Source of the DNA: an uncultured Oscillospiraceae bacterium
GTDB taxonomy: Bacteria; Bacillota; Clostridia; Acetivibrionales; DTU013
Assembly (NCBI GenBank): GCA_964512095.1
Contig: CAZEIH010000001.1
Coordinates: forward strand, 126,091-190,090
Direction of reading: 5' to 3'
Length of the DNA stretch: 64,000 nucleotides
The position numbers were made by a program, and so were the translations under genes. The notes below the pieces were generated by a model. The model saw nothing but the letters and a program-made list of their open reading frames with translations, was not told the origin of the DNA and searched no databases. This document shows positions 15,731 to 35,589 of the stretch, piece by piece. Position 1 is the stretch's first letter, and the number at the start of each line of letters is the position of its first letter.

Positions 15731-15886
15731 TTATACCGCTTTTGAGTTGCTCCCCTGATATTTTGCTTTTGTTGCTTCCCCTCCCCTGATATGCCTTTCT
15801 GCTTTGTTTTCCTCCAGAATGACCCTCACGTCTTCAGCAAGCTCAGGGCTCACCCTTAGCAATCGTTCCGTTACATCCTTGTGCAC
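15731..15886 (-). CDS. spoIIID: spoIIID 3' segment (C-terminal 49 codons plus stop) of a split gene
   Basis: Encodes VHKDVTERLLRVSPELAEDVRVILEENKAERHIRGGEATKAKYQGSNSKAV*, colinear with the C-terminal half of SpoIIID (KSTVHKD...RGG.GGE motif region). The upstream part of the 95-aa track ORF is element DNA. Confidence 0.85.
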   Translation of the reverse strand: MHKDVTERLLRVSPELAEDVRVILEENKAERHIRGGEATKAKYQGSNSKAV

Positions 15887-17489
15887 GGTTGTCAGTATCG
15901 GCGACGCTATTTTCAACAGGCGACATGAGGAATGTTCCCGACAAAAGAATAGGGAAGTTAAGGCCTTCCACGTCCTCGCTGATGTTGAAATAAACGTAGA
16001 TCTCATCCACAGACACAATTTTAATCTCTTTGATTATTTTCTTTAAGTCAGCATTCTCAATGCTTTCAGTAAAACTAAATTTATCAAAAATCTCAATAAA
16101 CTGCTTTAGACTCTCCCTGATCTGACGATTCAGTTCTCTGGTCTTGTCGGTGCTATCCAGCTTGAATGATAACCTTTCAATTTCGGCATTGATGGGAACC
16201 ATATCCTGCTTCGCTTCATCCATGGTAATAAGACCATTCACAGCCAATTCCTTTAGCCTGTCACGTTTGCTATGCAACTCACTTAGGTCTGCTTTCGCCT
16301 CATCAAGATCAATGCCATTGTTATCCCTGATATACTCCCTGATTAAACTATTGCACTTGCGCTCAACCTCATCAAAGAAAGATACTTTTCCCTCTACCAG
16401 ATAACTAAAAAGACTGTCCAATCCTTCTTTAAGCCAATCTTCATTTATTCTGGTGTATTCAGATTCGCAGCGGTTTTTGCCATAGGCACTTCTTTTAGAG
16501 CATGTCCACCAAACATACAACGGGCCATCTTTAGAGTGCCTTCTTTGATAACGCCTGTAAGAAAAACCGCATGAACCGCATTTAATTAAGTTGGAAAATA
16601 AATGCTTATTGCTCCTGCGTGAAAATATGTCTTGATAGAGTTCAGCGTTTTTCTTCGTCTGTTCCAGAGCCTTATAAAATTGCTCATCAGATATGATTCT
16701 AAACTCCGGTCTGTCCACCACATACCACTCTTCTTCCGGGTTTTCCTTGCGCTTGTTGGTAAATATATCTGTACTGCTCTCTTTGCCATTGATGACTTGG
16801 CCAATATATATTTCATTTCTCAAAATATTACCCACCGTGTTTTGCGACCAATTATAGTTGGGCTGTCCGTCTTTCAGTTTTTTGGTCTGCACTCGGTTCT
16901 CAAATAAATAGGAAGCGATTCTTGCCATGCCCCATTCTTCTTCCGTATATAAGTCGAAAATTTTCTTGACCCATTCGCTTTCTTCAGGGTTAGGCTCTAA
17001 ATTATATGCATCTATCCTATCATAGCCAAAGACGAAATTAGGCACACGGCCTTTTTCTTTGCCGAATTGCTTTCCAAACTTCACTTTTTCTGAGATGCGC
17101 TGGGATTCACTTTCAGCCAGCATAGCCATAAGATTTAAAGTGAAACCATCAATATCCTTGCCTTCGCCCATATTGACAAGATGCAGATTCACTCCATACA
17201 AGCTCAATTCTCTAGTAACGGTGATAAAATCAAGTGTGTTTCTAAAAAGCCTGCTGATATCTTTAACATAGAGCTTTTCAAATTCTCCACGCTTGGCGGC
17301 TTTTCTCAATCGCTGCAAATCTTTTCTGTTTTGCATCTTTGTAGCAGACTTGCCCTTATCACAATAAATCGCTACTAGTTCATCTCCCCTTTTGGGAATA
17401 TAGCTTTCAAAAAACTCACGCTGATTTTCCAGCGAGCTTTGTTGTTCTTCTTTATCTGTACTAACCCTAATATAAGCGACAGCCTTCAT
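15843..17489 (-). CDS. Large serine recombinase (rec1)
   Basis: 548 aa. N-terminal resolvase catalytic motif AVAYIRVSTDKEEQ, a recombinase domain, and a Cys-rich zinc-ribbon (CGSCGFSYRR...WWTCSKR...C). RBS GAGAGGTG. The ORF reads across attL into host DNA. Confidence 0.9.
   Translation of the reverse strand: MKAVAYIRVSTDKEEQQSSLENQREFFESYIPKRGDELVAIYCDKGKSATKMQNRKDLQRLRKAAKRGEFEKLYVKDISRLFRNTLDFITVTRELSLYGVNLHLVNMGEGKDIDGFTLNLMAMLAESESQRISEKVKFGKQFGKEKGRVPNFVFGYDRIDAYNLEPNPEESEWVKKIFDLYTEEEWGMARIASYLFENRVQTKKLKDGQPNYNWSQNTVGNILRNEIYIGQVINGKESSTDIFTNKRKENPEEEWYVVDRPEFRIISDEQFYKALEQTKKNAELYQDIFSRRSNKHLFSNLIKCGSCGFSYRRYQRRHSKDGPLYVWWTCSKRSAYGKNRCESEYTRINEDWLKEGLDSLFSYLVEGKVSFFDEVERKCNSLIREYIRDNNGIDLDEAKADLSELHSKRDRLKELAVNGLITMDEAKQDMVPINAEIERLSFKLDSTDKTRELNRQIRESLKQFIEIFDKFSFTESIENADLKKIIKEIKIVSVDEIYVYFNISEDVEGLNFPILLSGTFLMSPVENSVADTDNRAQGCNGTIAKGEP
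15880..15886. other. attL core: left copy of the 7-bp direct repeat TGTGCAC
   Basis: Identical heptamer at 38024-38030. It lies exactly at the point where SpoIIID-like coding breaks off. Confidence 0.75.
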
Positions 17490-17534
17490 ACGGATTCACC
17501 TCTCTGTCATATCTCCTATATATTTAATGGTTCT

Positions 17535-17563
17535 ATTATAACGAAATGAATTTTTTTGGTCAA
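17535..17563 (-). promoter_or_regulatory. Near-consensus sigma-A-type promoter for rec1: TTGACC, 17-nt spacer, TATAAT
   Basis: Minus-strand TTGACC at 17563-17558 and TATAAT at 17540-17535, with a 17-nt spacer. About 45 nt upstream of the rec1 ATG. Confidence 0.55.
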
Positions 17564-17564
17564 G

Positions 17565-17599
17565 AAATGAAAACAGGGCAGCTTATGCGCTGTCCTGTT
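17565..17599 (-). terminator. Hairpin plus T-rich tract between the small ORFs and the rec1 promoter
   Basis: Stem AACAGGACAGC / GCTGCCCTGTT (17572-17599), followed on the minus strand by TTTCATTTC. Confidence 0.5.
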
Positions 17600-17750
17600 C
17601 TGTGTATGTACTATCGGTTGAGTTAATGGATTTTATCGCCGCCGCTACGATGCTTTTGGCAACCCCTTGAGACAGTGCATCTAAAATATAACTTAGGATA
17701 GCGGGATCCAGGTTGCTTATTTCACTTTTTTTCTCTAACACCCCTTGCAC
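17583..17750 (-). CDS. Small ORF (55 aa, GTG start), candidate accessory or directionality factor
   Basis: VQGVLEKKSEISNLDPAILSYILDALSQGVAKSIVAAAIKSINSTDSTYTEQDSA. RBS GGGGGTGAG. A similar small ORF lies upstream of rec2. Below the ORF-track size cutoff. Confidence 0.4.
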   Translation of the reverse strand: MQGVLEKKSEISNLDPAILSYILDALSQGVAKSIVAAAIKSINSTDSTYTEQDSA

Positions 17751-17860
17751 TATCTCACCCCCTTTGACCCTGTCCTCTTGCTAATGTATATTGCGGCTTG
17801 GGTGGTTTTATTCCCCTTATTTGGGCGAGCTGTATCTTTGTAAATAAATGGATTTTCCAT
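17750..17860 (-). CDS. Small basic ORF (36 aa)
   Basis: MENPFIYKDTARPNKGNKTTQAAIYISKRTGSKGVR. Strong RBS GGGAGGAAAACT before the ATG. Its stop overlaps the next GTG start (TAGTG). Confidence 0.35.
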   Translation of the reverse strand: MENPFIYKDTARPNKGNKTTQAAIYISKRTGSKGVR

Positions 17861-18015
17861 AGTTTTCCTCCCTATTCGGTTATCTACTATGAAATATCCA
17901 CACGCTCTGTCGCTTAGATTCGGCTAAAACCACCCATGATTAGACCGCCATACATACACGATTAGATGGCTAAATGACGTTCTGCAACAATTCCTAGAAC
18001 ACCAACGACCAAATT

Positions 18016-18394
18016 TTATCCCCCGGCACAACACTTCACAGATAGCAGTTTCCCATTGGCCATCATAAACACTTCAGGATATTTGAACATTTCCAGATAC
18101 TTGCTGGCCAACTCATCTGTAAGACCTTTAAAAATTTTCGCTATCTGGCCTTGCCAAGCAGATAAAGAACGTGCCTGCTATGATTTCATATAAATCGCCC
18201 TTGTCATCGGCAAGTCTCCTGTTTAAGTCCAGCCCATTTATTTTTCCTTCCTCGTTACACACAATTGCTACATGGTCAGCAAAAGGATAGATCGCCTCAA
18301 TATAGCCACCTACAACCTTTTGCATGGCCTTAAGCCCCGAATCTATCTGCCTAATCTCTGCCACCTTGTTTGGCTCTACATAAACCACTTTCAC
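18016..18394 (-). pseudogene. DUF3846-like gene, frameshifted
   Basis: GTG start at 18394 with RBS AGGAGGGG. VKVVYVEPNKVAEIRQIDSGL...AGTFFICLARPDSENF stops at 18128. The expected C-terminus KGLTDELASKYLEMFKYPEVF... continues in the +1 frame to 18016. The shift lies in an A/T homopolymer run. Confidence 0.55.
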
Positions 18395-18618
18395 ATAACC
18401 CCTCCTATACCGACAGCTTACATATTTATCCACCAACTTTAGAACCCCTTGGGTCACTTTGGGTCAACATTGGCACCAAATCCATACCTAATCCTTAGAA
18501 CCACCCTAAACCCCTTTTAAAACCCCTTGGGTCAACCCTGGACACTACTCAAACCATACTTGCGACAACCGACAACCTCCATATTCGCAAAATACATTTT
18601 CCTCGGTTGCGATATGTA

Positions 18619-19194
18619 TCACATCTGATTTTTAAGAATCTCCAAGCAAAGCGGGTCTATGTCGCTTTCTTGGATTCTAGTAACTTTGAGCACCATCCGA
18701 TCAATCCCAGAATCAACAATGGAATAATAACTGCCGTTAAAACAGTACCCGGTGCCGTCAAAAATAATATGGGGGATATCCATACAGCTCAAAACCTCGG
18801 ATAAACTGTCACAATTATCCGTGATGGGGAAGAAGTCTCCAATGTCGTCAAATTCAAATTCCGGCTCTTTTTCCTTTGCTGGCTGATCGGAATCATCGTC
18901 ACCGCAGTATAATTCACCAATATGCTCGTCTGCATAGAGTTGATTATTCCGCTCACTTTTGATGAAACGGTTTACCATCTCTTCCATCTGGGATATTTGA
19001 TATGCTATATCGCTGGCCAGCTTTTGATCATCCAAGCTAAACCTTGTATAGTCAAACACATATCCTTTTCCTGTAATCTGATTTAATATTTTCGCACATA
19101 GAATTAAATCTCTGTTATAGTTCTTCATATGGCTATTAACCATATTTTTGATTGCTACTTCAATTGTTTTCTGCTTCTCGATCATGCAGCACAC
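18619..19194 (-). CDS. Hypothetical protein (acidic middle region)
   Basis: 191-aa ORF with no recognisable domain. Its start may be the internal MIEKQK. Confidence 0.45.
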   Translation of the reverse strand: MCCMIEKQKTIEVAIKNMVNSHMKNYNRDLILCAKILNQITGKGYVFDYTRFSLDDQKLASDIAYQISQMEEMVNRFIKSERNNQLYADEHIGELYCGDDDSDQPAKEKEPEFEFDDIGDFFPITDNCDSLSEVLSCMDIPHIIFDGTGYCFNGSYYSIVDSGIDRMVLKVTRIQESDIDPLCLEILKNQM

Positions 19195-19381
19195 CCGCCT
19201 CTCTTAATTCTTTAAGTTTTCTGCCCATGGCACATTGACTGAATCCCTGCATTCTGGCTAAATCCTTGACCTTGACTCCCTCGTTGCGAAGTTTAACCAG
19301 CTCATGATTAGTCAGTTTCTTCCTGCCTGGGTCTACACCGCCAACCAATTCAATTAGGATCCTGCAAATATGATTGGTCAT
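19160..19381 (-). CDS. Small helix-turn-helix protein (sigma-70 region-4-like)
   Basis: 73 aa. LTNHELVKLRNEGVKVKDLARMQGFSQCAMGRKLKEL resembles an HTH. Confidence 0.45.
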   Translation of the reverse strand: MTNHICRILIELVGGVDPGRKKLTNHELVKLRNEGVKVKDLARMQGFSQCAMGRKLKELREAGVLHDREAENN

Positions 19382-19497
19382 TTTTCACCGTTGATTTGAT
19401 GTCAGCGATGGGGAGTTTCTATTTTTGTTTCATGTACCAGAATTTCTGTACCTTCCTTCCTCGTTCTTGAAGTAAATTGAATTTTCCATGAACTGTA

Positions 19498-19526
19498 TTG
19501 ACATTTTTACTCTAACCAGTTAGACT
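19498..19526 (+). promoter_or_regulatory. Sigma-A-type promoter for the blaI/blaR1-like operon: TTGACA, 17-nt spacer, TAGACT
   Basis: TTGACA at 19498-19503 and TAGACT at 19521-19526. Directly followed by the repeated ACTCTAT half-sites, a possible operator. Confidence 0.45.
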
Positions 19527-19566
19527 CTATGTGTACTCTATTGCATTAGAGAAAGGAGCGGTTAAT

Positions 19567-19941
19567 ATGGAAACACCTAAAGTATTTGAGAGCGAATATC
19601 GCTTTTGTCTTATTCTGTGGGAGCACGAGCCTATTGGAAGCGGCGAGCTTGTAAAGCTGTGTAAAAAGCAGCTTGACTGGAAGCCAACCACCACATATAC
19701 GGTCATCAAACGCCTTTCCGAACGTGGTATTCTGAAAAACGAAAACTCAATCGTATCTTCGTTAATTTCAAAGGATGAAGTGCAGGCTGCCGAGATCGAT
19801 GAGCTTGTGGAAAAGAAATTTGAGGGTTCTCTACCGGCTTTTATCACTGCATTTACAAAGCACCAGCAAATTTCAGATAAGGAGATCGATGAAGTACAGA
19901 AAATGATTGACCGATATAGGAAGGGGAATCGCAATGGCTGA
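19567..19941 (+). CDS. BlaI/MecI/CopY-family transcriptional repressor
   Basis: Winged-helix N-terminus (LILWEHEPIGSGELVKL...TTTYTVIKRLSERGIL) and a C-terminal dimerisation helix. RBS AAAGGAG before the ATG at 19567. Its stop overlaps the next gene start (ATGGCTGA). Confidence 0.8.
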   Translation: METPKVFESEYRFCLILWEHEPIGSGELVKLCKKQLDWKPTTTYTVIKRLSERGILKNENSIVSSLISKDEVQAAEIDELVEKKFEGSLPAFITAFTKHQQISDKEIDEVQKMIDRYRKGNRNG

Positions 19942-21796
19942 TATATTCTTGAAATTTATCAACATGAGCATATCCGCAAGCTGGCTTGTGCTTGTTGTTG
20001 TCATTCTAAGATTATTACTAAAAAAGGCACCAAAATGGCTGAACCCTGTGCTATGGGGAATCGTCGGTCTCCGGCTCATTTTGCCCTTTTCCATTGAAAG
20101 CATCCTGAGCCTGATCCCCAGTGCTGAAACAATCAGCCCGGAAATTATTTACTCTCAGGAGCCAGCAATCCATAGTGGTATTCAGGCATTAAACAGCGTG
20201 GTCAATCCCATCATTATGGAATCTTTTACCTCTAATCCTACGGCCAGTATAGATCCATTGCAAATATGGATTCCAATAGCTGCTATTGTTTGGACTGTTG
20301 GTATCGCCGCCATACTTATCTACACGATTATCAGTTATCTGCATCTGAGCAGGCTGGTAAAGACTGCTGTGTTGCTCCGGGATAATATTTATCAGAGTGA
20401 AAATGTTGTATCACCCTTTGTACTCGGCATACTGCGCCCCCACATCTATCTACCATTTAATATGAACGAGAAAGATATAGCTCATGTGATTGCTCATGAA
20501 CAAACGCACATCAAGCGGCGCGATCACTGGATTAAGCCATTTGGCTTTTTAATGCTTGCTTTGTACTGGTTCAATCCTGTGTTGTGGGTGGCGTACATAC
20601 TTCTCTGTCGGGATATTGAGCTTGCCTGTGATGAGGGAGTGATTAAAGAATTGTGTGCAGATCAGCGAGCGGATTATTCGGATGCTCTACTTTCATGCAG
20701 TGCGCCACGACGTATGATTGATGCATGTCCGCTTGCTTTCGGAGAAATTGGTGTGAAAGAGAGGGTGAAAAACGTGCTGAATTATAAAAAGCCTGCGTTC
20801 TGGCTTATTATCGTTGCTGTTGTCATCTGCATCGTCGTAGCTGTGTGCTTTCTAACAAATCCAAAGAAGGCTCCGATCTCTTTAGGCACTATTCAGATAA
20901 CTTGGGCAAATGCATTGGATATGAGATCCAACGAGCCGACATCGTACAAATTGAATGGCGCAGAGCTTGGTGAACTAAAAGACCGTCTGCGGGATTTGGA
21001 GATTGGCAGAAAAAATAATGATTATGGCGGTTTTACGCCTGTGTATTCGCTGTCAATAAAAGCGCAAGGCATGGAGCAATTCATGATTGCAAGCTACAAC
21101 AGCGACGGCACTCATGTAGGTTTGAGGTATGAGGGTGAATATTACCGCATAGAAGATAACGATTTTTCAAGATACCTCAGCAACATTTGTGCTGGGGGCA
21201 ACAGAGCTGAAGCACTCGGTAATAAAATCAAGTTGTCTCTCGATGATGTAATTATGCTTTCTCAAAAAGGTGAAGATCTTTCGTGGGAAGATTTTGAACA
21301 ATTTTCTTATGTGGAAACCGGCTCTGGCCTCTATATCCATGTTTATGAAATCAATCCTTTGTTATCACTTTGGATAGGTGGAGGCAATCTCGACAATGAG
21401 CCAATGTATATCAGCCTTTGCATCAATACGGAGCCAGAGGATGCCATAGACATTCGAACAGAAGATTTAACCGCTTTTATCAGTAAGCATAGAGATGATC
21501 TACCGGAAGCATTTATCTCCCGTATATACAGATTCAACGATTCAGAGGACTTTATAAAAACCGCTGAGGTTGTTCTTAATAAAGATGAGACTTTTACCTT
21601 TAATTTTTCGCCTATCAGCAGTTATCTCGGACATGGTACTTATAAGATCGATGGTAATAGACTGACTTTGAATACAGATGATGGATATTATACCTATGTA
21701 TTTGACATGGTAGATGATACACTTGTTTTCGATGCCGATGCTTCCTCAGAACAGGTTTGGTTTTCTGGCATAACGGATGGTTCGGTGTTCAAGTAA
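19934..21796 (+). CDS. BlaR1/MecR1-like M56 metallopeptidase signal transducer with an unrecognised C-terminal sensor domain
   Basis: N-terminal TM helices, zinc motif HEQTHIKRRDH, then a further TM and about 300 aa extracellular region with no SxxK penicillin-binding motif seen. Confidence 0.75.
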   Translation: MADIFLKFINMSISASWLVLVVVILRLLLKKAPKWLNPVLWGIVGLRLILPFSIESILSLIPSAETISPEIIYSQEPAIHSGIQALNSVVNPIIMESFTSNPTASIDPLQIWIPIAAIVWTVGIAAILIYTIISYLHLSRLVKTAVLLRDNIYQSENVVSPFVLGILRPHIYLPFNMNEKDIAHVIAHEQTHIKRRDHWIKPFGFLMLALYWFNPVLWVAYILLCRDIELACDEGVIKELCADQRADYSDALLSCSAPRRMIDACPLAFGEIGVKERVKNVLNYKKPAFWLIIVAVVICIVVAVCFLTNPKKAPISLGTIQITWANALDMRSNEPTSYKLNGAELGELKDRLRDLEIGRKNNDYGGFTPVYSLSIKAQGMEQFMIASYNSDGTHVGLRYEGEYYRIEDNDFSRYLSNICAGGNRAEALGNKIKLSLDDVIMLSQKGEDLSWEDFEQFSYVETGSGLYIHVYEINPLLSLWIGGGNLDNEPMYISLCINTEPEDAIDIRTEDLTAFISKHRDDLPEAFISRIYRFNDSEDFIKTAEVVLNKDETFTFNFSPISSYLGHGTYKIDGNRLTLNTDDGYYTYVFDMVDDTLVFDADASSEQVWFSGITDGSVFK

Positions 21797-21825
21797 GATG
21801 TATAAACAAGCAGGTATTGATGAGG

Positions 21826-22160
21826 TTCGAAAAGTCGGAACATACCGGAAGGATCTCATCATACTAGACTTTCAAAGCCTCCATACACCTGTAATGGCTG
21901 TGAGGATAAAAGATCTTGCACGTTGGAAAAGAGGGTCTACTCTGCGGTTCATGCACAAAGAGAATACGAGGCAGTCCGTTCCGAGTCTCGTCAAGGGTTA
22001 CAGCTTACAGAGGAAGAGGCTTTGAGACTAGATTCACTTATTAGCCCTCTGCTAATGAAAGGCCAGTCACTCCACCATATATGTGCAAACCATGTAGATG
22101 AGATTATGCTCAATGAACGCTCTCTTTACAACTACGTGGATGATGGCATTTTTGCAGCAC
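21826..22160 (+). pseudogene. Transposase remnant (IS30-like family, uncertain), truncated at both ends
   Basis: Encodes ...LSKPPYTCNGCEDKRSCTLEKRVYSAVHAQREYEAVRSESRQGLQLTEEEALRLDSLISPLLMKGQSLHHICANHVDEIMLNERSLYNYVDDGIFAARD and then diverges. There is no start, no DDE domain and no terminal repeats. Confidence 0.5.
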
Positions 22161-22282
22161 GAGATACCATCTACAATACGGTTTCCTGTGGAATTTACTT
22201 TTGCAAACTGGAAGTTACCTTTTCAATTGACCCTTGCGCGACAACACTTTTTACAATACCTTATAATTTTGAATACTTTCGC

Positions 22283-23632
22283 CTAATATTTTGACCGTTC
22301 CAACGCCATCCCAATAATCTTATCCGCATGATCCGCCATAAACAACGGAATATTCAGCAGGTCATCATCCATGCGCAGGTTATTCAGTGAAAAGCGAACA
22401 CGCAGCTTTACCTTATCTTCAAATTTTTCCTTGTACTTTTTAAGGCTCCGGCTTTCCACATTGCTCTCGGATTTAACCTCTACCGGCAAAATGTCATTTT
22501 CTCTTTGGATAAGAAAATCAACCTCATACCTTGGGTTATCCATTGTCCAATAACGTGGCATAGCTTCAAACTGGTTTTGTAACGCTTGCAGGACATAATT
22601 CTCACTTAAAGCCCCTTTAAACTCTACAAACAGCCTATTACCTTCACCAAATGCCGAGGGAGCTAATAGAGATAATCTACGCAATAATCCTACATCGACC
22701 ATATATAGTTTAAATGCAGACAAATCGTCATAGGCGGAAATAGGCAGCCCCGGTGCGGTGCTGCGGTATATCTTATAAGTCAAGTTGGCATCACAAAGCC
22801 ATTGCAGAGCATCTTCGTATTCCCTCGCTCTGGCTCCTTCCTTGACAACCTTATAAATAAACTTTTTATTTTCCCTTGCCAGTTGTGAAGGGATTGATTT
22901 CCATATCATTGAGATTTTCGGAAAATCCTTAGGATCAGGGTGCTTGGCAAAATCTCTTTCGTATGCGCCTAAAATATTGGATAGCACCTGCTGCATCAGC
23001 TCCACATCTCGGTCTTGCACCCAAGAGCGAACAGACTCCGGCATACCGCCTGTTACAAAATACATTTTAAGCTTTTCGTATAATGGATTGAAAAACGCCT
23101 CGGGAATCGGCTCAATCCTGTCCACGCTTTTCATATAATCAGCAAAGTTACCGTCGCCATTGGCCATTAAAAACTCCGTAAATGTCATTGGCATAATTTC
23201 TAAAAAATCCACCTTGCCAACTGGAAAAGATGCTGGCTTAGACAATGCAATGCCCAAAAGTGATCCTGCGCAGGCTACATGGTAGTGAGGCGTGTTCTCG
23301 CAGAAATACTTCAGTGTGTTCAGTGCGTTAGGGCATTCCTGTATCTCATCAAAAACAATGAGCGTGTCCTCCGGATTGTCTTGTTTGATGACTTCTCCGC
23401 TGGCCATCATCAGATTTTGCAGAATACGCTCCACATCCTTGGTGCTTTCAAAAAACTGTTTATATTCTGGATGCTCGTCAAAGTTGAAATAGGCCATATT
23501 TTCATAATGGCGTTTTGCAAATTCCTTGAGTAGCCAAGTCTTGCCCACCTGACGCACCCCTTTTAAAATAAGGGGTTTTCTATATTTGGAGTTTTTCCAG
23601 TCCAGCAGTTTTTGCATAGCCAGTCTTTCCAT
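22283..23632 (-). CDS. AAA ATPase with DUF4143-type C-terminal domain (copy 1)
   Basis: Walker A GVRQVGKT and Walker B LIVFDEIQ. The likely start is MERLAMQK (23632) after RBS GGAGGTGG. About 25 substitutions versus copy 2, by eye. Confidence 0.8.
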   Translation of the reverse strand: MERLAMQKLLDWKNSKYRKPLILKGVRQVGKTWLLKEFAKRHYENMAYFNFDEHPEYKQFFESTKDVERILQNLMMASGEVIKQDNPEDTLIVFDEIQECPNALNTLKYFCENTPHYHVACAGSLLGIALSKPASFPVGKVDFLEIMPMTFTEFLMANGDGNFADYMKSVDRIEPIPEAFFNPLYEKLKMYFVTGGMPESVRSWVQDRDVELMQQVLSNILGAYERDFAKHPDPKDFPKISMIWKSIPSQLARENKKFIYKVVKEGARAREYEDALQWLCDANLTYKIYRSTAPGLPISAYDDLSAFKLYMVDVGLLRRLSLLAPSAFGEGNRLFVEFKGALSENYVLQALQNQFEAMPRYWTMDNPRYEVDFLIQRENDILPVEVKSESNVESRSLKKYKEKFEDKVKLRVRFSLNNLRMDDDLLNIPLFMADHADKIIGMALERSKY

Positions 23633-23929
23633 ACCGCCACCTCCAAGATAACACATTATTATACAACTTTTGCGTATGATAATCACATTTATATTGATAA
23701 GTATAGCTGAAATTCAAATTCTAGTCAAGAGTAATCACACTATTATATGAAATAGATAGATAAAAATCACATAATCGTGTAATTTTACTCTATAGTCTTT
23801 AACATAACAAAACCTGCCCCGATAAACAAGGCAGGTTTTGCTTACTTTCATGTATTCTTAATTTCAGCTTTTAAGCCGCATATTCAAACACCCAATGCAA
23901 CCGACACTGACTGTTACTACTGTTTGTAC
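22295..23929. repeat. Direct repeat copy 1 (right-end module of unit 1: ATPase gene, upstream region, hairpin, att arm)
   Basis: Collinear with 36353-38030. High nucleotide identity through the ATPase gene and lower identity in the upstream region. Similarity starts at CCG(T/C)TCCA...GCCATCCCAATAATC. Confidence 0.8.
23809..23839. terminator. Symmetric hairpin AAAACCTGCC-N11-GGCAGGTTTT (bidirectional terminator-like), copy 1
   Basis: Perfect 10-bp stem flanked by an A-run and a T-run. Lies 25 nt downstream of the rec2 stop. An identical hairpin is at 37900-37930. Confidence 0.6.
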
Positions 23930-25585
23930 CGTTGTTCCTATCGGTGTCGGTGTTTTCTTGCTTTTTAATGCTCTGCCTTTTATAGTGCGTCTGACTTCTG
24001 CATCGCAGTCGCTCTCTAGTATTATAGGAAAGAACAGGCCATTAATCTCGTCATCTACTTTAAAGTATACATGCAACTCGCTTGCACTTATGACTCTGAT
24101 TTCCTTAACCACACTCCTAAGACCATTATTTGTAAGACCATCTTTAAACGAAAAACTATCAAAGTTGCGAATAAAACCTTTAACATTTTCTTTGACTTTA
24201 CGTGTGAGTTCGGCGGTCACATCCTCTGCGTGAAGTATGGTTGATATACGCTTGATGTCAGCATCTAAGGCTGCCATATCCTTCTCGCCCTCATCCATAC
24301 CAATCATACCTTTTTTCACCATAGTTTTGACACGCTCACGCTGTGCTTGTAAGTCTTTCAGTTCTTTGTTCAACTCATTAAAATTCAGCCCTGTGGCGTT
24401 TTTGAGGTACTCTTTGATTACATCACTACACTTAGCCTCAATCAGCTTAAAAAAGGCTTCACGGTCTTGCACTAAACTGTCAAATAAAAGAGTTAAGCCT
24501 CTGAGAACATCTTCTTCTTCCACTCTTATATGCTCTGCTGTACACCTTGCACTACCATAAGCCTGTCGCTTACTGCACACCCACCAATAGTAGTACGGTC
24601 CCGTCTCACTATACTTACGCTGATAGCGTCTATACCCGCCACCACAGGAGGTACACTTTAATAGGTTTGAAAGGGTGTGGTCCTCACTACGGCGTGAAAT
24701 CTTTCGATGCCCGTGTTCATCAGATGGAAATTTCTCTGCGTTCTCTTCTATAATCCGTTGTGCTTTCTCAAATTGCTCATCAGATATGATACGAAAATCA
24801 GGTCTTTCTGTAACAAACCAATCTTCTGTATCCATCGTTACGCGTTCGCCCGTATAAATGGACTTTACATTCTCCTTGTTATTTATAATAAGCCCTGTAT
24901 ATAAGCGGTTTTTTAGTATACATGAAACAGTATGTTGAGTCCAGTTATAGTTGGGTTCACCGTTCTTTTTCTTTTTTGTTACTACTCGGTTCTTATATAA
25001 GAAGTCGGCTATACGGCTCATTCCCATATGCTCTACTGTATATAAATCAAATATCTTTTTGACCCAGTAGGCATCCTTATCTGGTTTTAAAGTATATTTA
25101 TCAACACGCTCATAGCCAAAAACGAAGTTAGGCACTATCCCTTTTTTCTTACTGATGTTTTTACCGAACTTGACACGCTCACTCATTTTTTCAGACTCGT
25201 TTTCTGCCAATAAAGCCATTATACTGAGTGATAAGGAATCCACATCTTTACCTTTCTCGCCCTGACCGGCTAAGTGTAGTTTAATCCCTAACCCGTCCAA
25301 CAACTCTCTCGTAAAGGTTATATAATCGAGTTGATTTCGGAATAACCTTGATATTTCCTTTGCGTAAATCTTTTGATAACACCCTTTTTTACCATCACTT
25401 ATTAACCTCTGTAATTCCCTTCTATTTTTGGACTTAGTTGCACTCATACCCTCATCGCAGTATATTTCAACTAACTCGTCACCCCGGTCTGCTATGTATT
25501 TCTCAAAGAACTCCCGCTGGTTCTTCAGCGACAGGGCTTGTTCTTCTTTATTTGTACTAACCCTTATATACGCAACAGCCCTCAT
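23864..25585 (-). CDS. Large serine recombinase (rec2)
   Basis: 573 aa. AVAYIRVSTNKEEQ catalytic motif and a zinc-ribbon (CTSCGGGYRR...WWVCSKR...C). Roughly half the residues are identical to rec1 by eye. The ORF spans the internal attP-like site. Confidence 0.9.
   Translation of the reverse strand: MRAVAYIRVSTNKEEQALSLKNQREFFEKYIADRGDELVEIYCDEGMSATKSKNRRELQRLISDGKKGCYQKIYAKEISRLFRNQLDYITFTRELLDGLGIKLHLAGQGEKGKDVDSLSLSIMALLAENESEKMSERVKFGKNISKKKGIVPNFVFGYERVDKYTLKPDKDAYWVKKIFDLYTVEHMGMSRIADFLYKNRVVTKKKKNGEPNYNWTQHTVSCILKNRLYTGLIINNKENVKSIYTGERVTMDTEDWFVTERPDFRIISDEQFEKAQRIIEENAEKFPSDEHGHRKISRRSEDHTLSNLLKCTSCGGGYRRYQRKYSETGPYYYWWVCSKRQAYGSARCTAEHIRVEEEDVLRGLTLLFDSLVQDREAFFKLIEAKCSDVIKEYLKNATGLNFNELNKELKDLQAQRERVKTMVKKGMIGMDEGEKDMAALDADIKRISTILHAEDVTAELTRKVKENVKGFIRNFDSFSFKDGLTNNGLRSVVKEIRVISASELHVYFKVDDEINGLFFPIILESDCDAEVRRTIKGRALKSKKTPTPIGTTVQTVVTVSVGCIGCLNMRLKS
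23899..23951. other. Internal attP-like dyad site at the unit 1 / unit 2 junction
   Basis: AACCGACACTGACTGTTACTACTGTTTGTACCGTTGTTCCTATCGGTGTCGGT, with outer inverted repeat ACCGACAC/GTGTCGGT. 38 of 53 positions match the attP reconstructed from the element-side arms of attR plus attL. Confidence 0.6.
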
Positions 25586-25687
25586 AACATCAATCCTCTC
25601 CGTTACATTTGCATAATTAAAAGCACCCGATAAAACCTCACAGAGAGAATTATTTCAGATGCCTCCTGCTTGTTACAATGCATAATA

Positions 25688-25807
25688 TCACGCTGTTTCT
25701 GAGATTTGTATTGCTTCGGCCGACTCAGCCACTATCTTTCGAGCGATATTTAGTGCAAGAGTCTCTGCTATCTTTTGTAGGATGTCATCGGGTAGTTTGA
25801 CCTCCAT
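25688..25807 (-). CDS. Small ORF (39 aa from the ATG), homologous to the small ORF upstream of rec1
   Basis: MEVKLPDDILQKIAETLALNIARKIVAESAEAIQISETA. The same frame stays open upstream (…KRISIRYNANGQGVKG) with no canonical start, and that stretch resembles the 36-aa ORF of unit 1. Confidence 0.35.
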   Translation of the reverse strand: MEVKLPDDILQKIAETLALNIARKIVAESAEAIQISETA

Positions 25808-26032
25808 ACCTTTGACTCCTTGTCCATTTGCGTTATACCTTATGCTTATTCTCTTTTTAGCTTGTTTATGTTTGTTAAATTGCTTTATAGTAACCGCAGT
25901 CCTTCTTGTCTTAATGACCTGTTTGTCATTGTGCCTAACCGGCTCTAAGCTCTTTATTTATGCATAAAAATGTTGGAGAGCTAAAATTTATCTCTTTAGC
26001 CACCCCAACATTAATTATAGAACCAATATATA

Positions 26033-27397
26033 TCAGAACTTATCGCCCAGCTTGTAATCGGCGATCAGCTCCAGACGGCTGCTGCGGCCGGTTTTCTTGA
26101 AGATGTTGCCGGCATGGAATTTTACCGTACTTTCTGTGATATACAGTGCGTTGGCAATCTCTGAATTGGACATGCCCTGTATAATAAAATTGAAAATGTC
26201 CTGTTCTCTAACCGATAGTCCAAAGTGGTTTACATACTCGGTCAGCCGCCGCTTTTCCGCCGCCTCCGGGCTTGTAATGGAAATGTACAGTTTCTGATAC
26301 AGCAGGAAGAAAAGTACGGTTACAAGCATGTAAACAACACTTGAAAGCACAATGAGGGGAATGCCTGTAAGTACGTCGGCGCATAACGTTCCGACTGCCT
26401 CTCCAAGACGTCCCACCAACAAACCGAACACAGCAAGAGCCGGCATACCCATCTTGTCGGAAATGTCTGAGAAAACCAGAATACGGTGCACCGACCAGAA
26501 ACCCAAGAACAGATAGGCCAGCATCCACATAGCTGTTTCTCCGGCAGAGTTACTGCCAAGTGCCAATGCCGCAAATGGAAAAGCAAGCGCTGCCAGACAA
26601 CAGATTGCTCCCCAACGTCGGTTTCTGTCGCTGACAACTCCGGCGATAATAAGACCAACGCCATAAAATGCGCGTGTGAACTCTATATAGACACTGCCCA
26701 TTGCTCCTTTGAGCGGGAAGGAGAAGCCGAGTGTGTTTTCCATCGATAACAGCAATAGCACAACTGCGGCTAGCCAAACAGTCTTTTTTTTAAAACCGGC
26801 ATGAAAATATCGGCTTTTTTCAGCCGCAGGAGGTGATGGAAGCCAACGCAGGAGTAATAATGACACAACTGCGAGCAACACTATGGCAAAGAAGCTATTG
26901 CTATGCCACAGGAAACGTTTACCCATCGGAAGAGAAATAAGCCATGTACAAATACTGCCAAAGGCGTATGCAGAGCCAAACACCAACCCTCGGCGCTGCT
27001 GCGGAATATCCGTGGAAAGCCTCGTCAGATAGCATCCTGACAAGATTCCGATTGATATGTTGAGCAATGCACCGGCAGCAATAATAACCGCTAAAGATGG
27101 TGAAAAAAATGACGCTGCTGTGCAGATTAATGCGATTATGGTAGTCAGGAGGGGGAATAACCGACCGCCGCCAAGAGAGGAGCGTTTTGCGAAAAGCAGT
27201 CCGGCCGCGCCGATGCCGGCAGCTTGGCAGACATAGTATGCCCCGCATACCAGCAGATTCACCGTTCCTCCATCCAGCATACTGAGCATCCGGTACGCTT
27301 GTGTAATATATGCCGTACCCGTCCAAAGAAAACCAAGACCGATAAGTGCAACAAAATACGGATACCTGCTTCTTATCTGGATACCATTTTTTATCAT
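26033..27397 (-). CDS. Polytopic membrane protein fused to a C-terminal LuxR-type HTH
   Basis: About 380 aa with 10 or more hydrophobic segments, then LSVREQDIFNFIIQGMSNSEIANALYITESTVKFHAGNIFKKTG. Lies in GC-richer DNA. Confidence 0.75.
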   Translation of the reverse strand: MIKNGIQIRSRYPYFVALIGLGFLWTGTAYITQAYRMLSMLDGGTVNLLVCGAYYVCQAAGIGAAGLLFAKRSSLGGGRLFPLLTTIIALICTAASFFSPSLAVIIAAGALLNISIGILSGCYLTRLSTDIPQQRRGLVFGSAYAFGSICTWLISLPMGKRFLWHSNSFFAIVLLAVVSLLLLRWLPSPPAAEKSRYFHAGFKKKTVWLAAVVLLLLSMENTLGFSFPLKGAMGSVYIEFTRAFYGVGLIIAGVVSDRNRRWGAICCLAALAFPFAALALGSNSAGETAMWMLAYLFLGFWSVHRILVFSDISDKMGMPALAVFGLLVGRLGEAVGTLCADVLTGIPLIVLSSVVYMLVTVLFFLLYQKLYISITSPEAAEKRRLTEYVNHFGLSVREQDIFNFIIQGMSNSEIANALYITESTVKFHAGNIFKKTGRSSRLELIADYKLGDKF

Positions 27398-27617
27398 ACT
27401 TTATCTCCTGTGATTAGGATTGCAAATACAAATATTAGTCCACATATATTGACATAATTATAGCATACGCCAGCAGTAAGTATAAAGAAAAAAGTCAAAA
27501 AAGAGAGAATAAAGTCCACCTATACTAAAACTATACCGCTCTTTTAGCCCGTCTGTACCCTATCTGGACTGTCCATGCAGAAAATTGACGTTTATGCTGA
27601 TATTGGAGGTGATCGAC

Positions 27618-27944
27618 ATGACATCACTGAGACGATGTTTTGCCTATGAGAAGAACATCGTTATAAATGCCCTGTACGATACCATCGAGGCATTGGGGCT
27701 ATCTCTTGACAGCTCAAACAGCATGCGTGGCACGTTGATAGTTTCCGACACGAACCATACCGGTAAAATGCGTATCGCACTCAGCTTTGACGCAGTTAGG
27801 AAGCAAACTCAGGTAGAGATCTATCCTGTGGACTCCGGAATAAACATTACTGAAGACTGGAGTACTGTTATTTTGGATGAACTCTCGGGAAGAATGGAGT
27901 ATTTGCACCAATTCGTTCGTGAAAGCAGCAACGGGTTATATTGA
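27618..27944 (+). CDS. Hypothetical small protein
   Basis: RBS GGAGGTG before the ATG at 27618. First gene of a co-oriented cluster divergent from the LuxR gene. Confidence 0.5.
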   Translation: MTSLRRCFAYEKNIVINALYDTIEALGLSLDSSNSMRGTLIVSDTNHTGKMRIALSFDAVRKQTQVEIYPVDSGINITEDWSTVILDELSGRMEYLHQFVRESSNGLY

Positions 27945-27977
27945 ACGAAGCACTAAGATATGAGAGGTGGAGTTTAA

Positions 27978-29474
27978 ATGAAAAAAGCACAACGTATTTT
28001 AGCAGCCATATGTATAGTCTTTATCACACTTACAGCATTAACGTTTAATGTCTACGGCGCAGAGCCTTCAATGACAAACTTTGATAAAGCGCAAAGCTAC
28101 AAGCCGGGGCAGTTTCCTGATATTACCGAAAATGAATGGTTCGGCTATAATAAGCAGCGTGTTGTTTGCAAGGCGTATGAATTGGGCCTGATGCAGGGAA
28201 AGGGCACCATGTTTGACCCAAATGCCGGAGTTACCTTAGCTGAAGCAGTTACAATGGCCGCAAGATTAAATAATATCTATAGCGGCGGCGATTGGGAGTT
28301 TCACCAGAGCTCCCCATGGTATTATACATATCTGGAATATTCCGTTTATAAGGAAATAGTCCAGGTTGACACTTTTGAAGATCTGACAAGACCAGCCACC
28401 AGAGCGGAAGTGGCTTACATATTTGCCCGTGCCCTTCCCGAAGGTGAATTTGCCGCTATTAATAAAATAGATGCCTTGCCTGATGTTAATTCCGGTACAC
28501 CTTACCAGAGCGAAATCTTTAGGCTCTACAAATCGGGTATTCTTACCGGTAACGATGCATATGGCACTTTTGGACCAAATGAGACGATTACCCGCGCACA
28601 GGCAGCAGCTATCATAACGAGGATAGCCCTTCCCTCGGAAAGAGTATCATTCACTCCAGCAAAAAAGGATGAACCGGCAGATAAAAAAGAAACAGTGAGC
28701 GAAGAACCCGCCAGTGTAATACCTGTCTGGAGTGAGGTCTATACTGAGGGCATGACCGTAAAAACAAAGGATGAATTAGCTGATCTGGTCGATGCTGCAT
28801 TCTATAACCTTGTTCCGAAATTCGAAATCTTGCTCGAAAATGCCGCATACGATGAATACTTTGACGACGTTGATTTTTCGGTGAGGCATTCGAATTTAGG
28901 CTACACTAGTTCGAATTATGATTATCAAACCAAAGTGTTTAGTCAAGAAATTAAGTATCTCCTGTTTCACCAAATGAAGGCTCTCATATTCAACCGGAAA
29001 GCTATTGAACTGTATGTAACAGAGGAAATGCGTGATTATGATACAAAAATGAATGCAATACTGGACAAAATAATTAAAACTGGCATGACTGAGAAAGAAA
29101 AGGTCAAGGCCGTTCACGACTATATGGTCGTTAACTACAGATATGACGAAAATTTTGAGGTAGGCTTATACGGCACTGATACCTATGCCTTTCACGGGCT
29201 TTTGAATTACGGGACCGGCGTCTGCCAAGCATATGCGGAATTGTTCTACCTTTTTATGAGCTATGTAGATATCGAATGTATCTTTGTGGGAGGCTGGGCG
29301 GACGGCGGAACCGGCGAGTATGGACTTCATGCATGGAATGTTGTCTATGCTGACGATGGCTACTATCATGTTGATGTGACCTTTGATGACACGCTGCCTG
29401 ACTCAGGCAGCAAAATCTCATATGATTATTTCCTGAAAACAGATGATGAAATGGCAATAGATCATGATTGGTGA
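27978..29474 (+). CDS. Secreted protein with SLH-like repeats and a C-terminal transglutaminase-like cysteine protease domain
   Basis: Signal peptide. SLH-like segments (…TRAEVAYIFARAL, ITRAQAAAIITRIA). Transglutaminase core GVCQAYAELF…GLHAWNVVY…HVDVTFDD. Confidence 0.7.
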   Translation: MKKAQRILAAICIVFITLTALTFNVYGAEPSMTNFDKAQSYKPGQFPDITENEWFGYNKQRVVCKAYELGLMQGKGTMFDPNAGVTLAEAVTMAARLNNIYSGGDWEFHQSSPWYYTYLEYSVYKEIVQVDTFEDLTRPATRAEVAYIFARALPEGEFAAINKIDALPDVNSGTPYQSEIFRLYKSGILTGNDAYGTFGPNETITRAQAAAIITRIALPSERVSFTPAKKDEPADKKETVSEEPASVIPVWSEVYTEGMTVKTKDELADLVDAAFYNLVPKFEILLENAAYDEYFDDVDFSVRHSNLGYTSSNYDYQTKVFSQEIKYLLFHQMKALIFNRKAIELYVTEEMRDYDTKMNAILDKIIKTGMTEKEKVKAVHDYMVVNYRYDENFEVGLYGTDTYAFHGLLNYGTGVCQAYAELFYLFMSYVDIECIFVGGWADGGTGEYGLHAWNVVYADDGYYHVDVTFDDTLPDSGSKISYDYFLKTDDEMAIDHDW

Positions 29475-29594
29475 TGCGAGATATCCGGCGCCCAAACGAT
29501 GGTGACCGAAGAATTGAATGGTGTGATAGATAAAGCTGTCACTCAGATTCCATTGATAGTGTTGTCAAGATATTGAAAGGGGTGGATGTAATAA

Positions 29595-31244
29595 ATGAGA
29601 AAAAGCAAATTGTGTATTTTTCTTCTATGCGCTATGATGCTTATGGCGCTGATGCCAACAGCAGCGTTGGCCACAGAACCTGCGCTAGCGGTGGACATTG
29701 TCACGGACGTTTCAACGGTTACAGAACTGAGGACAGCGCTGGAAAATAATGCGGGCGCTCATATCAGGCTGACAAAGAATATCACCTTCACCAAGGCAAA
29801 CGCAGCTGACAGGGATATCGGTGTTTATCTCGGCGAGGGCTGCTATACCATTGATTTGAACGGTTTTACGCTGAAATATCATTACATGACGGGCGGTGAG
29901 TTCACTGACCAAGGCTCGCCGCTGGCAAGCGGTAAGGCCAAGCTGCTCGTTATTAACGGCCCCGGTTCACTTATTGGAGGCAGCCATGGTTTTGAGCAAC
30001 TCGACCAGTTCGGCACTTTAATCGTCAATGGCGGCACGTTCAAGGGGGTCATGGGCTTCGGCATCCGCATGACCGGCGGCATTACTTATATGAACGGCGG
30101 GACTGTGACAGGTAATTTCGGTGGAATTGAACACGGGGACGGTATTGTCATAATGAACGGCGGAAACGTGAAAAGCGTGGTTCATAACCCTAGGGGCAGC
30201 ATAACGCCGAAAAAATACGGTTTGATCAAGGACGGCGTATTTACCGGCAACACTGTTCTTGAGGATATAATTCTGATTGTCCCCGATCTCACTATAAAAG
30301 CGGGATCGTCCATTAAGTTAATACGCGGCGGAGGGCTTGTCGTCAAGAACAGCTTAGTCAACAATGGCACGTTCACTTATGAATCGGGACTGAAATCCAT
30401 AGGTGGCAAGGCAGTGATAAGCAAGGATTTTCAGGTTACTATTGCACAGGATGTAACATTCAGCTCTCTAAAGATGCAGGAGCGTGCTCGGCTGATCATA
30501 GAAAACGGAGCGACTGTGGCCGTCAGCGACACTTTTGTCACGGAGCAGGACTGCTCTATCATAGCTAAAAACGGAACCCTCAGGCTTTTGGGCAGCATTG
30601 ACCATAGTGGATATGCCGAGGGCGTTCCTGAGCTTGAGGCGCTTCAGGACGGTAACGGCGGCGGAGGTCAAGGTCCAGGGCCGGAGCAGCGTGACTTCAT
30701 TGCTGAAACCGCTGCTGCCGAAAAGCTCAAGGCACTGGGGCTATTTCAAGGCGTTGGAACCAACCCGGACGGCAGTACAAACTTTGACCTCGCTCGAAAA
30801 CCCTCGCGAACAGAGGCGCTGGTCATGCTCATACGGCTGCTCGGCAAGGATAACGAGGTCATATCCGGAAGCTGGACTCATCCCTTCACCGATGTTCCGA
30901 AGTGGGCGGACAATTATGTTGGATATGCCTATGAAAACAAGCTCACAAACGGCATCTCCGCAACCGAGTTTGGTACAGGAACGGCCTCCTACAAGACATA
31001 TCTGACCTTCGTTTTGCGCGCGCTCGGCTACTCGGATAAGGGAGGTGTCGATTTCACATGGGACATGCCTGATGATCTGGCGCTTTCCATTGGTATCATG
31101 GCTGCGGGTATGCACCATGAAAATTTCCTCCGCGCCGACGTGGTGCTGGTTTCAGAAGCCGCATTGTCGGCAAGGCTCAAGGATGGCAGTGATTTGCTGC
31201 TTGATAAGCTGATTGAAGATGGAGCTGTCACACAGGTGCCATGA
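29595..31244 (+). CDS. Secreted repeat protein (NGG-type beta-helix-like repeats) with C-terminal SLH-like anchoring region
   Basis: Signal peptide. Repeats VNGGTFKG / MNGGTVTG / MNGGNVKS. A Gly-rich linker GNGGGGQGPGPE. C-terminal HPFTDVPKWADNYVGYAYENKL. Confidence 0.6.
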   Translation: MRKSKLCIFLLCAMMLMALMPTAALATEPALAVDIVTDVSTVTELRTALENNAGAHIRLTKNITFTKANAADRDIGVYLGEGCYTIDLNGFTLKYHYMTGGEFTDQGSPLASGKAKLLVINGPGSLIGGSHGFEQLDQFGTLIVNGGTFKGVMGFGIRMTGGITYMNGGTVTGNFGGIEHGDGIVIMNGGNVKSVVHNPRGSITPKKYGLIKDGVFTGNTVLEDIILIVPDLTIKAGSSIKLIRGGGLVVKNSLVNNGTFTYESGLKSIGGKAVISKDFQVTIAQDVTFSSLKMQERARLIIENGATVAVSDTFVTEQDCSIIAKNGTLRLLGSIDHSGYAEGVPELEALQDGNGGGGQGPGPEQRDFIAETAAAEKLKALGLFQGVGTNPDGSTNFDLARKPSRTEALVMLIRLLGKDNEVISGSWTHPFTDVPKWADNYVGYAYENKLTNGISATEFGTGTASYKTYLTFVLRALGYSDKGGVDFTWDMPDDLALSIGIMAAGMHHENFLRADVVLVSEAALSARLKDGSDLLLDKLIEDGAVTQVP

Positions 31245-31286
31245 ATAATAGTAGTGTCAATATATTGAAAGAGGAGTGAAGTTGAA

Positions 31287-35516: not shown

Positions 35517-35589
35517 TACAACAAGGTTACATAATGTCACCGGACTTACAGGTGTCTGGTTTACTCTGAACACATATGATAACAAAAAA

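Follow-up and report, generated by a model that had tools for sequence, protein, structure and literature searches.

Programmed excision of intervening DNA from sporulation genes is known for sigK, spsM, gerE, spoVFB, spoVR, and yabG. How the recombinases at a locus of this kind would be switched to excision is the question raised by a 64,000-nucleotide (nt) stretch of contig CAZEIH010000001.1 from an uncultured Oscillospiraceae bacterium (here termed the window, meaning the whole of the DNA analyzed). In the window, spoIIID, which is required for sporulation in Bacillus subtilis, is split by two tandem elements, A and B, whose last genes encode the large serine recombinases rec2 and rec1, respectively. 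A preliminary description of this DNA had proposed the conserved small open reading frames (ORFs) immediately upstream of both recombinase genes as the best candidates for recombination directionality factors (RDFs). By comparison with relatives (i.e., slot conservation, selection, and promoters), this proposal was supported for one small gene per recombinase, namely, a 55-amino-acid (aa) ORF upstream of rec1 (rdf1) and a 39-aa ORF upstream of rec2 (rdf2), and it failed for a further 36-aa ORF at the rec1 locus, which is no candidate. We consider it probable that rdf1 and rdf2 act as the RDFs of the two recombinases.

A small gene occupies the same slot upstream of related recombinases

A search for small proteins beside homologous recombinases, which had been suggested as a check, recovered an ORF of the same family (the helix ORF, after its predicted structure) upstream of the recombinase gene in the rec1-type, rec2-type, and intermediate clades, in all of which it is encoded in the same element as the recombinase and co-inherited with it. 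More specifically, the small ORF lies directly upstream of the recombinase gene in all seven close relatives (L001-L007; 76-91% recombinase identity), and it is also present in distant clades with 51-72% recombinase identity (L027-L035, L039, L040, L044, L063, L083, and L091), beside rec2-type recombinases (L097 and L098), and 62-66 nt upstream of the recombinase gene in three further genomes (L100-L102), in one of which (L100) the product called just after the recombinase has the Pfam SpoIIID domain. In most related spoIIID-inserted elements the distance to the recombinase gene is 60-100 nt, and ~45 related loci have the spoIIID 3' half behind the recombinase gene. Every helix-family member for which DNA was obtained adjoins a recombinase of the rec1/rec2 clade.

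Two minimal elements of 3.0-3.2 kb were found between spoIIID halves (L003 2580..5598; L005 2420..5603). Beyond the small ORF and the recombinase gene, each holds a single, unrelated metabolic cargo gene, which by eye is flavin-reductase/rubredoxin-like in one and short-chain-dehydrogenase-like in the other; the small ORF is the only gene common to both apart from that for the recombinase.

A sister clade of spoIIID-inserted elements found in the human gut (L012-L026, L042, L045-L047, L082, and L089; 49-78% recombinase identity to rec1) has in this slot an excisionase-type gene of 61 aa, ~170 nt upstream, which matches HTH_17 (PF12728) at E=3.5e-14, a domain absent from every helix-family member tested. 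Judged from its position, the HTH_17 gene in place of the helix ORF looks like a non-orthologous replacement in the same slot, and the presence of an excisionase-type gene there supports the reading of the recombinase-upstream position as a slot for an excision factor.

A different conserved mini-ORF, M[NH]IKI[NR]PP[KR].K..[FL]E.[EN]LL.IL, was seen directly upstream of distant recombinases that are not followed by spoIIID (34-46% identity; L008, L009, L053-L075, and L090).

The rec1 and rec2 small ORFs encode homologous single-helix proteins

The two small ORFs had been described as homologous, a relationship that is invisible to pairwise BLASTP, which returned no alignment even at E<=100, and that was recovered for the helix part by profile methods. 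A hidden Markov model (HMM) built from rec1-type sequences only matched the rec2 ORF at E=3e-7 (Z=1, a single comparison), and hhalign aligned the rec1-type and rec2-type small ORFs over 34 columns with 96.7% probability (E=4e-10). Sequences bridging the two types were also identified (P0050, P0054, and P0055), and relatives of rdf2 are P0037, P0047, and the ORFs at L097 and L098. The conserved core of the family reads L-[DP]-P-x-[IL]-L-x-x-I-x-x-x-L-x-x-G-[IV]-A-[KR]-S-I-[IV], and the family is recognizable at the protein level where DNA no longer aligns. Alignment of the two loci, the check proposed originally, was informative as protein profiles of the helix part, DNA alignment being uninformative beyond the recombinase start. 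By these profile comparisons, rdf1 and rdf2 belong to one unannotated family of single-helix mini-proteins, homologous in their helix part. The "IS.R...G.GVKG" pattern, which had been taken as shared protein sequence, proved instead to be a DNA-level likeness of the promoter/Shine-Dalgarno region (…GTCAAAGG… before the start codon), and at the rec1 locus it had been read partly in a shifted frame. As had been described, the frame of the rec2 small ORF is open upstream to a TAA at 25960..25958; that stretch holds no ATG, GTG, or TTG.

We used AlphaFold2 to predict the structure of rdf1 as a monomer from a 43-sequence alignment. The prediction consists of one amphipathic helix (residues 16-48), with a predicted local distance difference test score (pLDDT) of >90 over 26 residues, and disordered acidic tails; rdf1 and rdf2 are each predicted to form one amphipathic helix. 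Within the helix core, the window and L001 differ at a proportion of 0.44 of synonymous sites (pS) and 0.01 of nonsynonymous sites (pN), 11 of the 12 differences falling at third codon positions, and pN/pS ranged from 0.03 to 0.68 across all pairs. By this measure, the helix core of rdf1 is under purifying selection on its amino-acid sequence.

Sequence searches of the small proteins against Pfam, PHROG, and PDB gave no meaningful match, and a tblastn search with the helix protein against 50,697 phage records, including SPBc2/SPbeta (and thus SprB), gave none at E<=1. An exhaustive profile search across 1.84 billion cluster representatives yielded 27 clusters and no more at E<=0.001, their lengths being 42-119 aa; the helix-protein family is a small one.

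The conserved product upstream of rec1 is the short protein

The 36-aa and 55-aa ORFs upstream of rec1 are present with the sequences and purine-rich Shine-Dalgarno sites described earlier. They do not represent two separate conserved genes, as had been supposed: relatives have a single frame of ~92 aa, and only the 55-aa ORF is conserved. Searches with the latter returned exact or near-exact copies together with 92-aa proteins in which the 36-aa and 55-aa parts are fused in one frame. The window allele carries a 1-nt deletion at ~17779 (AGCAAGAGG versus AGCAAAGAGG in relatives), and this allele recurs without change in five contigs that were assembled independently and derive from at least four sequencing runs; because it is identical in these five contigs, we regard it as a real allele and not a sequencing error. 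The deletion lies downstream of the -10 box of the candidate promoter described below, and therefore the 55-aa product would stay unaffected.

Besides the window, the long frame is disrupted in L003, L005, and L007, and in another subfamily in L044 and the window rec2 copy, the frameshifts in L003 and L005 being possible homopolymer/sequencing errors if these are long-read assemblies, as their isolate names suggest. It is open in L001, L002, L004, L006, L100-L102, L097, and L098. The short ORF and its Shine-Dalgarno site are intact at every locus, whether the long frame is broken or open. Moreover, the first 16 codons of the 36-aa ORF (i.e., the extension) have a pN/pS of 0.8-2.4 and no third-position bias. 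By these substitution patterns, the 36-aa ORF is a frameshifted, neutrally evolving remnant of an extension that is optional and in frame in relatives, neither a second RDF candidate nor a separate conserved gene. We conclude, on this comparative basis, that the conserved product is a short protein of 39-65 aa and that what is conserved of the "first ORF" is DNA with a regulatory role. In relatives with an open extension, a longer isoform could, speculatively, be made from read-through transcripts.

Annotation calls the small gene at ~55-60 aa or ~92-104 aa for the same sequence, the few source names being "hypothetical protein"; annotation pipelines mostly miss or mis-size these small genes.

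Two further observations concern the start of the small ORF. In the window allele with its frameshift, stop and start codons overlap (ATAGTG, 17748..17752, minus strand), the TAG ending the 36-aa ORF and the GTG opening the 55-aa ORF, an arrangement that could allow termination-reinitiation on read-through transcripts. In the "MGQAQ" subfamily (L003, L005, L006, L100, and L101), the start region reads ATGGGACAAGC, which is absent from the window copy and resembles the B. subtilis SpoIIID box (…GGACAAG…); such a box could serve to shut off the small ORF by SpoIIID after excision.

A candidate sigmaE-type promoter precedes rdf1, and rec1 has a predicted promoter of its own

Upstream of the 55-aa ORF stand two DNA blocks, GAATAAA-N14-AATATACATTA; of the 11 rec1-type loci for which DNA was available, 10 carry them without change and one (L102) carries a single substitution. 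The coding DNA beside these blocks is near synonymous saturation (pS 0.7-0.9), and the DNA similarity of L007 to the window begins just upstream of the -35 box. The sigmaE promoters of C. difficile and B. subtilis combine an ATA in the -35 region with a -10 box of the CATA type, the two being 16-18 nt apart (PMC3789822). The rdf1 element can also be written as ATA-N18-TATACATT, and we read the invariant blocks as a candidate sigmaE-type promoter together with the Shine-Dalgarno site of the 55-aa ORF. The strict sigmaE pattern has a background of 0.06 matches per kb per strand in the fetched loci, and, as a positive control, it is also present ~200 nt upstream of the host spoIIID (ATA-N17-CATATATT, 38336..38309, minus strand). 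A second match upstream of the spoIIID 5' half lies at 38378.

In other subfamilies, L039 and L063 have AAATAT(C/T)-N14-CATACATT or CATATATT, and L027/L028 have a near match to the sigmaE form, AAATATT-N14-CATATATA. By eye, the L032-type upstream region has ATA-N16-CATAGGTA, with the TACAT motif in a different codon phase. No candidate passed the strict or relaxed sigmaE regular expression upstream of the HTH_17 gene, the L036-type ORF, or the L032/L083-type ORFs. The weak mother-cell-type motif noted in the preliminary description at 17910-17883 fell away, being shared by only the closest relatives (L001 and L002); the family-wide element is that at 17813..17783.

We also considered other readings of these blocks. 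Comparison by eye with consensus sequences for sigmaG, sigmaF, and sigmaK showed a misfit in both spacing and -10 box, and a forespore sigma factor for rdf1 would be biologically senseless. The blocks were likewise rejected as an attachment-site (att) arm, the junctions lying instead at the recombinase 3' end and at the far left end of each element.

Downstream, a terminator-like hairpin overlaps the rdf1 stop codon. Its predicted folding energy is -16.6 kcal/mol (z = -4.6), and none of 200 shuffled sequences was as stable; a consensus terminator scan made no call at this hairpin. The predicted order in element B is therefore mother-cell-type promoter, small gene, hairpin, sigmaA-type (housekeeping) promoter, recombinase gene, and attR.

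Proposed role and alternative explanations

The candidacy of rdf1 and rdf2 as RDFs is supported by (i) the occurrence of the family in the same slot across clades; (ii) the retention of the ORF in minimal elements; (iii) purifying selection; (iv) the candidate sigmaE-type promoter; and (v) the separate predicted promoter of the recombinase. In the mechanism that we propose, the recombinase would be made constitutively from its sigmaA-type promoter and would by itself only integrate. After asymmetric division, the mother-cell sigmaE RNA polymerase would transcribe the small gene from ATA-N18-TATACATT. The helix peptide would bind the recombinase at or near its coiled-coil/zinc-ribbon region, by analogy with the RDFs of other large serine recombinases, and would switch it to attL x attR recombination; the elements would then excise and spoIIID would be rebuilt, in the mother cell only. 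We infer all steps beyond the presence of the genes, including all biochemical ones.

Several points weigh against this role. No match was found for the small helix protein in Pfam, PHROG, PDB, or the phage collection, and hence no likeness to a known RDF was detected there; one sister clade is without the helix ORF in this position; and, among solved structures, the N-terminal catalytic domain of rec1 is most closely related to a recombinase from a conjugative transposon (3g13) and to TnpX. Excision without an RDF is a property of some clostridial-transposon enzymes of the large serine type (TnpX and TndX). In addition, the rdf1 -10 box begins with T instead of C and its 18-nt spacing is at the long end of the range, and at rec2-type loci, aligned with L097 and L098, a -10-like box (CATAAGGTA) is present and a convincing -35 box was not found. 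Finally, both window copies are without the long form and could in principle be decaying.

The missing likeness to known RDFs, the sister clade, and the kinship with 3g13 and TnpX would all be accounted for if the recombinases were RDF-independent and bidirectional like TnpX/TndX, the helix protein having another role (e.g., in recombinase level or activity, maintenance, or sporulation timing). This is the main rival explanation, and we consider it unlikely. The slot of the sister clade carries an excisionase-type HTH_17 gene, as would a slot for an excision factor, and the 3-kb minimal elements retain the small ORF. Furthermore, an element in spoIIID needs timed excision, assuming that the host still sporulates, and a candidate mother-cell-type promoter on the small gene combined with a predicted constitutive promoter on the recombinase gene would repeat the RDF logic of skin(Cd) and SPbeta.

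It has also to be asked if the long form of ~92 aa is the true product, in which case the window and rec2 copies would be pseudogenes in decay and the "promoter" blocks would code for an N-terminal motif that is essential (NK…IYI…GGGE), the Shine-Dalgarno site GGGGGTGA coding for "GGGE" in the long frame. This explanation, which is improbable in our judgment, draws on the long frame being open with an ATG, and often a Shine-Dalgarno site, at the nine loci listed above and in many database entries, and on an I-x-I-x-Q…G-x-D-G-M motif that recurs in frame across distant members. However, the invariance of the blocks extends to all three codon positions, in contrast to the synonymous saturation of neighboring codons, and elsewhere the extension shows neutral evolution. 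In the window, L003, L005, L007, L044, and the window rec2 copy, a broken extension accompanies an intact short ORF and ribosome-binding site, and the frameshifted window allele persists in five contigs. What L007 retains is precisely the stretch that starts at the -35 box, and the TACAT motif of the L032-type stands in a different codon phase. That the small ORF is instead a leader or upstream ORF, or a piece of regulatory RNA or DNA controlling recombinase expression, with a functionless peptide, would fit its position immediately upstream of the recombinase gene on the same strand and the hairpin overlapping its stop codon. The strong purifying selection on the helix amino acids, with third positions varying freely, the recognition of the family as protein across non-aligning DNA, and the separate sigmaA-type rec1 promoter downstream of the small ORF make this explanation highly improbable.

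Returning to the RDF role, a wider proposal would be that the helix mini-proteins constitute a new RDF family for spoIIID-targeting serine recombinases, widespread among Clostridia living in the gut, the termite hindgut, and digesters. With spoIIID itself as the split gene, excision under this proposal must be triggered by sigmaE alone, which would make it the earliest developmental DNA rearrangement of the mother-cell cascade, and the two tandem elements, each with an RDF-recombinase pair of its own, would have to be removed sequentially or by cross-reaction before sporulation. We put this forward tentatively, with a confidence that falls a little short of an even balance. Possibly, a long read-through isoform serves horizontal transfer and a short, sigmaE-driven isoform serves sporulation.

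The type of system is well known; the helix-protein family is unannotated. A split spoIIID received one passing mention in the literature searched, in Ruminiclostridium cellulolyticum (bioRxiv 10.1101/2022.02.25.481979), and our literature search found no paper on a split-spoIIID recombinase or its RDF. Our genome comparisons reveal serine-recombinase elements inserted in spoIIID as a common feature of uncultured Clostridia, most of these elements carrying one unannotated, predicted single-helix gene with a candidate mother-cell-type promoter. If the RDF role is true, these proteins would provide a very small (39-60 aa), easily synthesized directionality switch for a site-specific integrase family, of interest for genome-engineering toolkits, and a handle on the gating of the sigmaE-to-SpoIIID step in gut spore-formers.

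The two elements and other features of the window

The locus has the features of a skin-like element, i.e., a sporulation gene in two co-oriented halves (both on the minus strand, the C-terminal one being coded directly behind the stop codon of rec1), a serine recombinase, and att junctions with a common core, GTGCACA being shared by the outer junctions J1 and J3. At J2, the right end of one element is joined to the left end of the next. Element A (~38023..23924, ~14.1 kb) and element B (~23923..15887, ~8.0 kb) are related, and, as read from these junctions, they are two tandem elements inserted at one shared site in the recognition-helix codons of spoIIID. Rebuilding spoIIID would need two excisions or one J1 x J3 cross-reaction. 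The coordinates of the features are given in Table 1.

Table 1 Positions of the small genes, their candidate control elements, the recombinase genes, and the junctions in the window
Feature	Coordinates	Strand	Basis
rdf1, 55-aa ORF, GTG start; candidate RDF of element B	17583..17750	-	ORF list, homologs, purifying selection (pN/pS 0.03-0.5), AlphaFold2
"36-aa ORF," ATG start; frameshifted remnant of optional N-terminal extension, contains candidate rdf1 promoter	17750..17860	-	
Shine-Dalgarno site GGGGGTGA of rdf1, 4 nt before GTG start	17755..17762	-	
Site of 1-nt deletion splitting the long frame, AGCAAGAGGAC (window) versus AGCAAAGAGGAC (L002/L007)	17772..17782	-	
Candidate sigmaE-type promoter of rdf1: -35 GAATAAA (17813..17807), 16 nt, -10 TATACATT (17790..17783)	17783..17813	-	
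Terminator-like hairpin overlapping rdf1 stop codon, then U-rich tract	17570..17601	-	RNA fold
sigmaA-type promoter of rec1, TTGACC-17-TATAAT	17535..17563	-	11/12 consensus matches
rec1, large serine recombinase, 548 aa; last gene of element B, 3' end overlaps attR (J3)	15843..17489	-	
rdf2, 39-aa ORF, ATG start; candidate RDF of element A, rdf1 homolog; helix core LPDDILQKIAETLALNIARKIVAES	25688..25807	-	
Conserved rdf2 leader: -10-like CATAAGGTA (25844..25836), Shine-Dalgarno site AAGGAG (25821..25816), ATG (25807..25805)	25805..25844	-	Alignment with L097, L098
rec2, large serine recombinase, 573 aa; last gene of element A, 3' end reads across J2	23864..25585	-	
spoIIID 5' half, TTG start at 38138, ends in J1 (attL; core GTGCACA 38030..38024)	38024..38138	-	tblastn
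J2, element A/B junction, attP-like imperfect palindrome ACCGACAC…GTGTCGGT around GGTACAAACAG (23930..23920)	23897..23951	-	
J3 (attR; P arm 15907..15893, core GTGCACA 15886..15880) and spoIIID 3' half, ~15886 to stop 15731	15731..15907	-	

Both recombinases contain Resolvase, Recombinase, and Zn_ribbon_recom domains and are 52% identical to each other; in rec1, a helical stretch at residues ~372-445 is suggested by a sub-threshold spectrin-repeat match only. The last codons of rec2 (23864..23930, minus strand) read across J2 into the left arm of element B, and those of rec1 (15843..15886, minus strand) overlap the spoIIID 3' half in another frame. Because these codons lie across junctions, the C-terminal tails of both recombinases would depend on the integration state.

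Beside the spoIIID 5' half stand a gene for an M23 peptidase and spoIID, and this neighborhood resembles the spore-former operon order spoIID-spoIIQ-spoIIID (bioRxiv 10.1101/2022.02.25.481979). The first gene in each element, beside the left end, encodes an AAA_14/DUF4143 ATPase (22283..23686 and 36344..37786, both minus strand), which may represent a second conserved module of these elements. Element B also carries a pair of ORFs resembling a BlaI-type repressor and a BlaR1-type sensor and an apparent IS30-family transposase fragment (19531..21796 and 21923..22294, both plus strand; judged by eye from the translations). Upstream of rdf1 lie a DUF3846 gene (18128..18457) and a small ORF (19160..19381) with weak, sub-threshold helix-turn-helix (HTH) matches. 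The cargo of element A (26033..27397, minus strand; 27978..35516, plus strand) includes a membrane protein fused to a LuxR-type HTH, a surface-layer homology (SLH)/transglutaminase protein, and a 1409-aa SLH/beta-helix surface protein. Among the relatives, L100 (1..4133) and L101 (1..1925) carry an SNF2-type helicase gene, and L100 carries DUF4391 and N6/N4-methyltransferase genes as well; by gene content, this cargo is defense-system-like.

Comparison with known systems

The helix family was compared with Skr, CD1234, and GirX, all experimentally established RDFs, through the published descriptions of these proteins, and the proposed arrangement would repeat that of their three systems. Skr (64 aa), which is encoded directly upstream of spoIVCA and is sigmaE-dependent, is the RDF of B. 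subtilis skin (PMC6957869). As with Skr/SpoIVCA, the element here interrupts the gene for a mother-cell sporulation regulator and ends with the small ORF followed directly by the recombinase gene, in the form attL-rdf-int-attR. The target is spoIIID, in contrast to sigK for skin, and, unlike skr, the small ORF ends before the recombinase gene begins, with a hairpin and a sigmaA-type promoter between them. The skin recombinase is itself sporulation-specific (PMC5595907), unlike rec1 with its sigmaA-type promoter.

In C. difficile skin(Cd), the RDF CD1234, a small acidic protein of 72 aa with no database similarity, has a sigmaE promoter near its start codon and is made in the mother cell only, and CD1231 is constitutive from a sigmaA promoter (PMC5025042). 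The same regulatory logic is predicted here in silico, with a candidate sigmaE-type promoter on the small gene and a sigmaA-type promoter on the recombinase gene. In contrast to this arrangement, the CD1234 gene lies apart from that for CD1231, and CD1234 depends on SpoIIID as well; because spoIIID is the split gene in the window, SpoIIID cannot activate the small genes there. GirX (42 aa, no known motif) is the RDF of GirC in the gin element in gerE of Bacillus cereus (PMC5595907). Like GirX/GirC, the window has non-phage intervening elements with tiny RDF candidates, and GirX has likewise been missed by annotation in some genomes. The gin element differs in its target, gerE, in its mid-sporulation timing (transcripts at T3-T5), and in that the GirC gene is also sporulation-induced. 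In SPbeta, expression of the RDF SprB has two routes, a mother-cell (sigmaE/K) promoter and read-through out of the genes lying upstream, and SprA is constitutive (PMC4191935). Unlike the window elements, SPbeta is a functional phage in which sprB is not adjacent to sprA, and its DNA gave no tblastn match to the helix protein at the threshold given above. Finally, the window proteins differ from HTH_17 (PF12728) excisionase-type proteins in being predicted single helices without an HTH, and share with them the position upstream of the recombinase gene that the HTH_17 gene holds in the sister clade.

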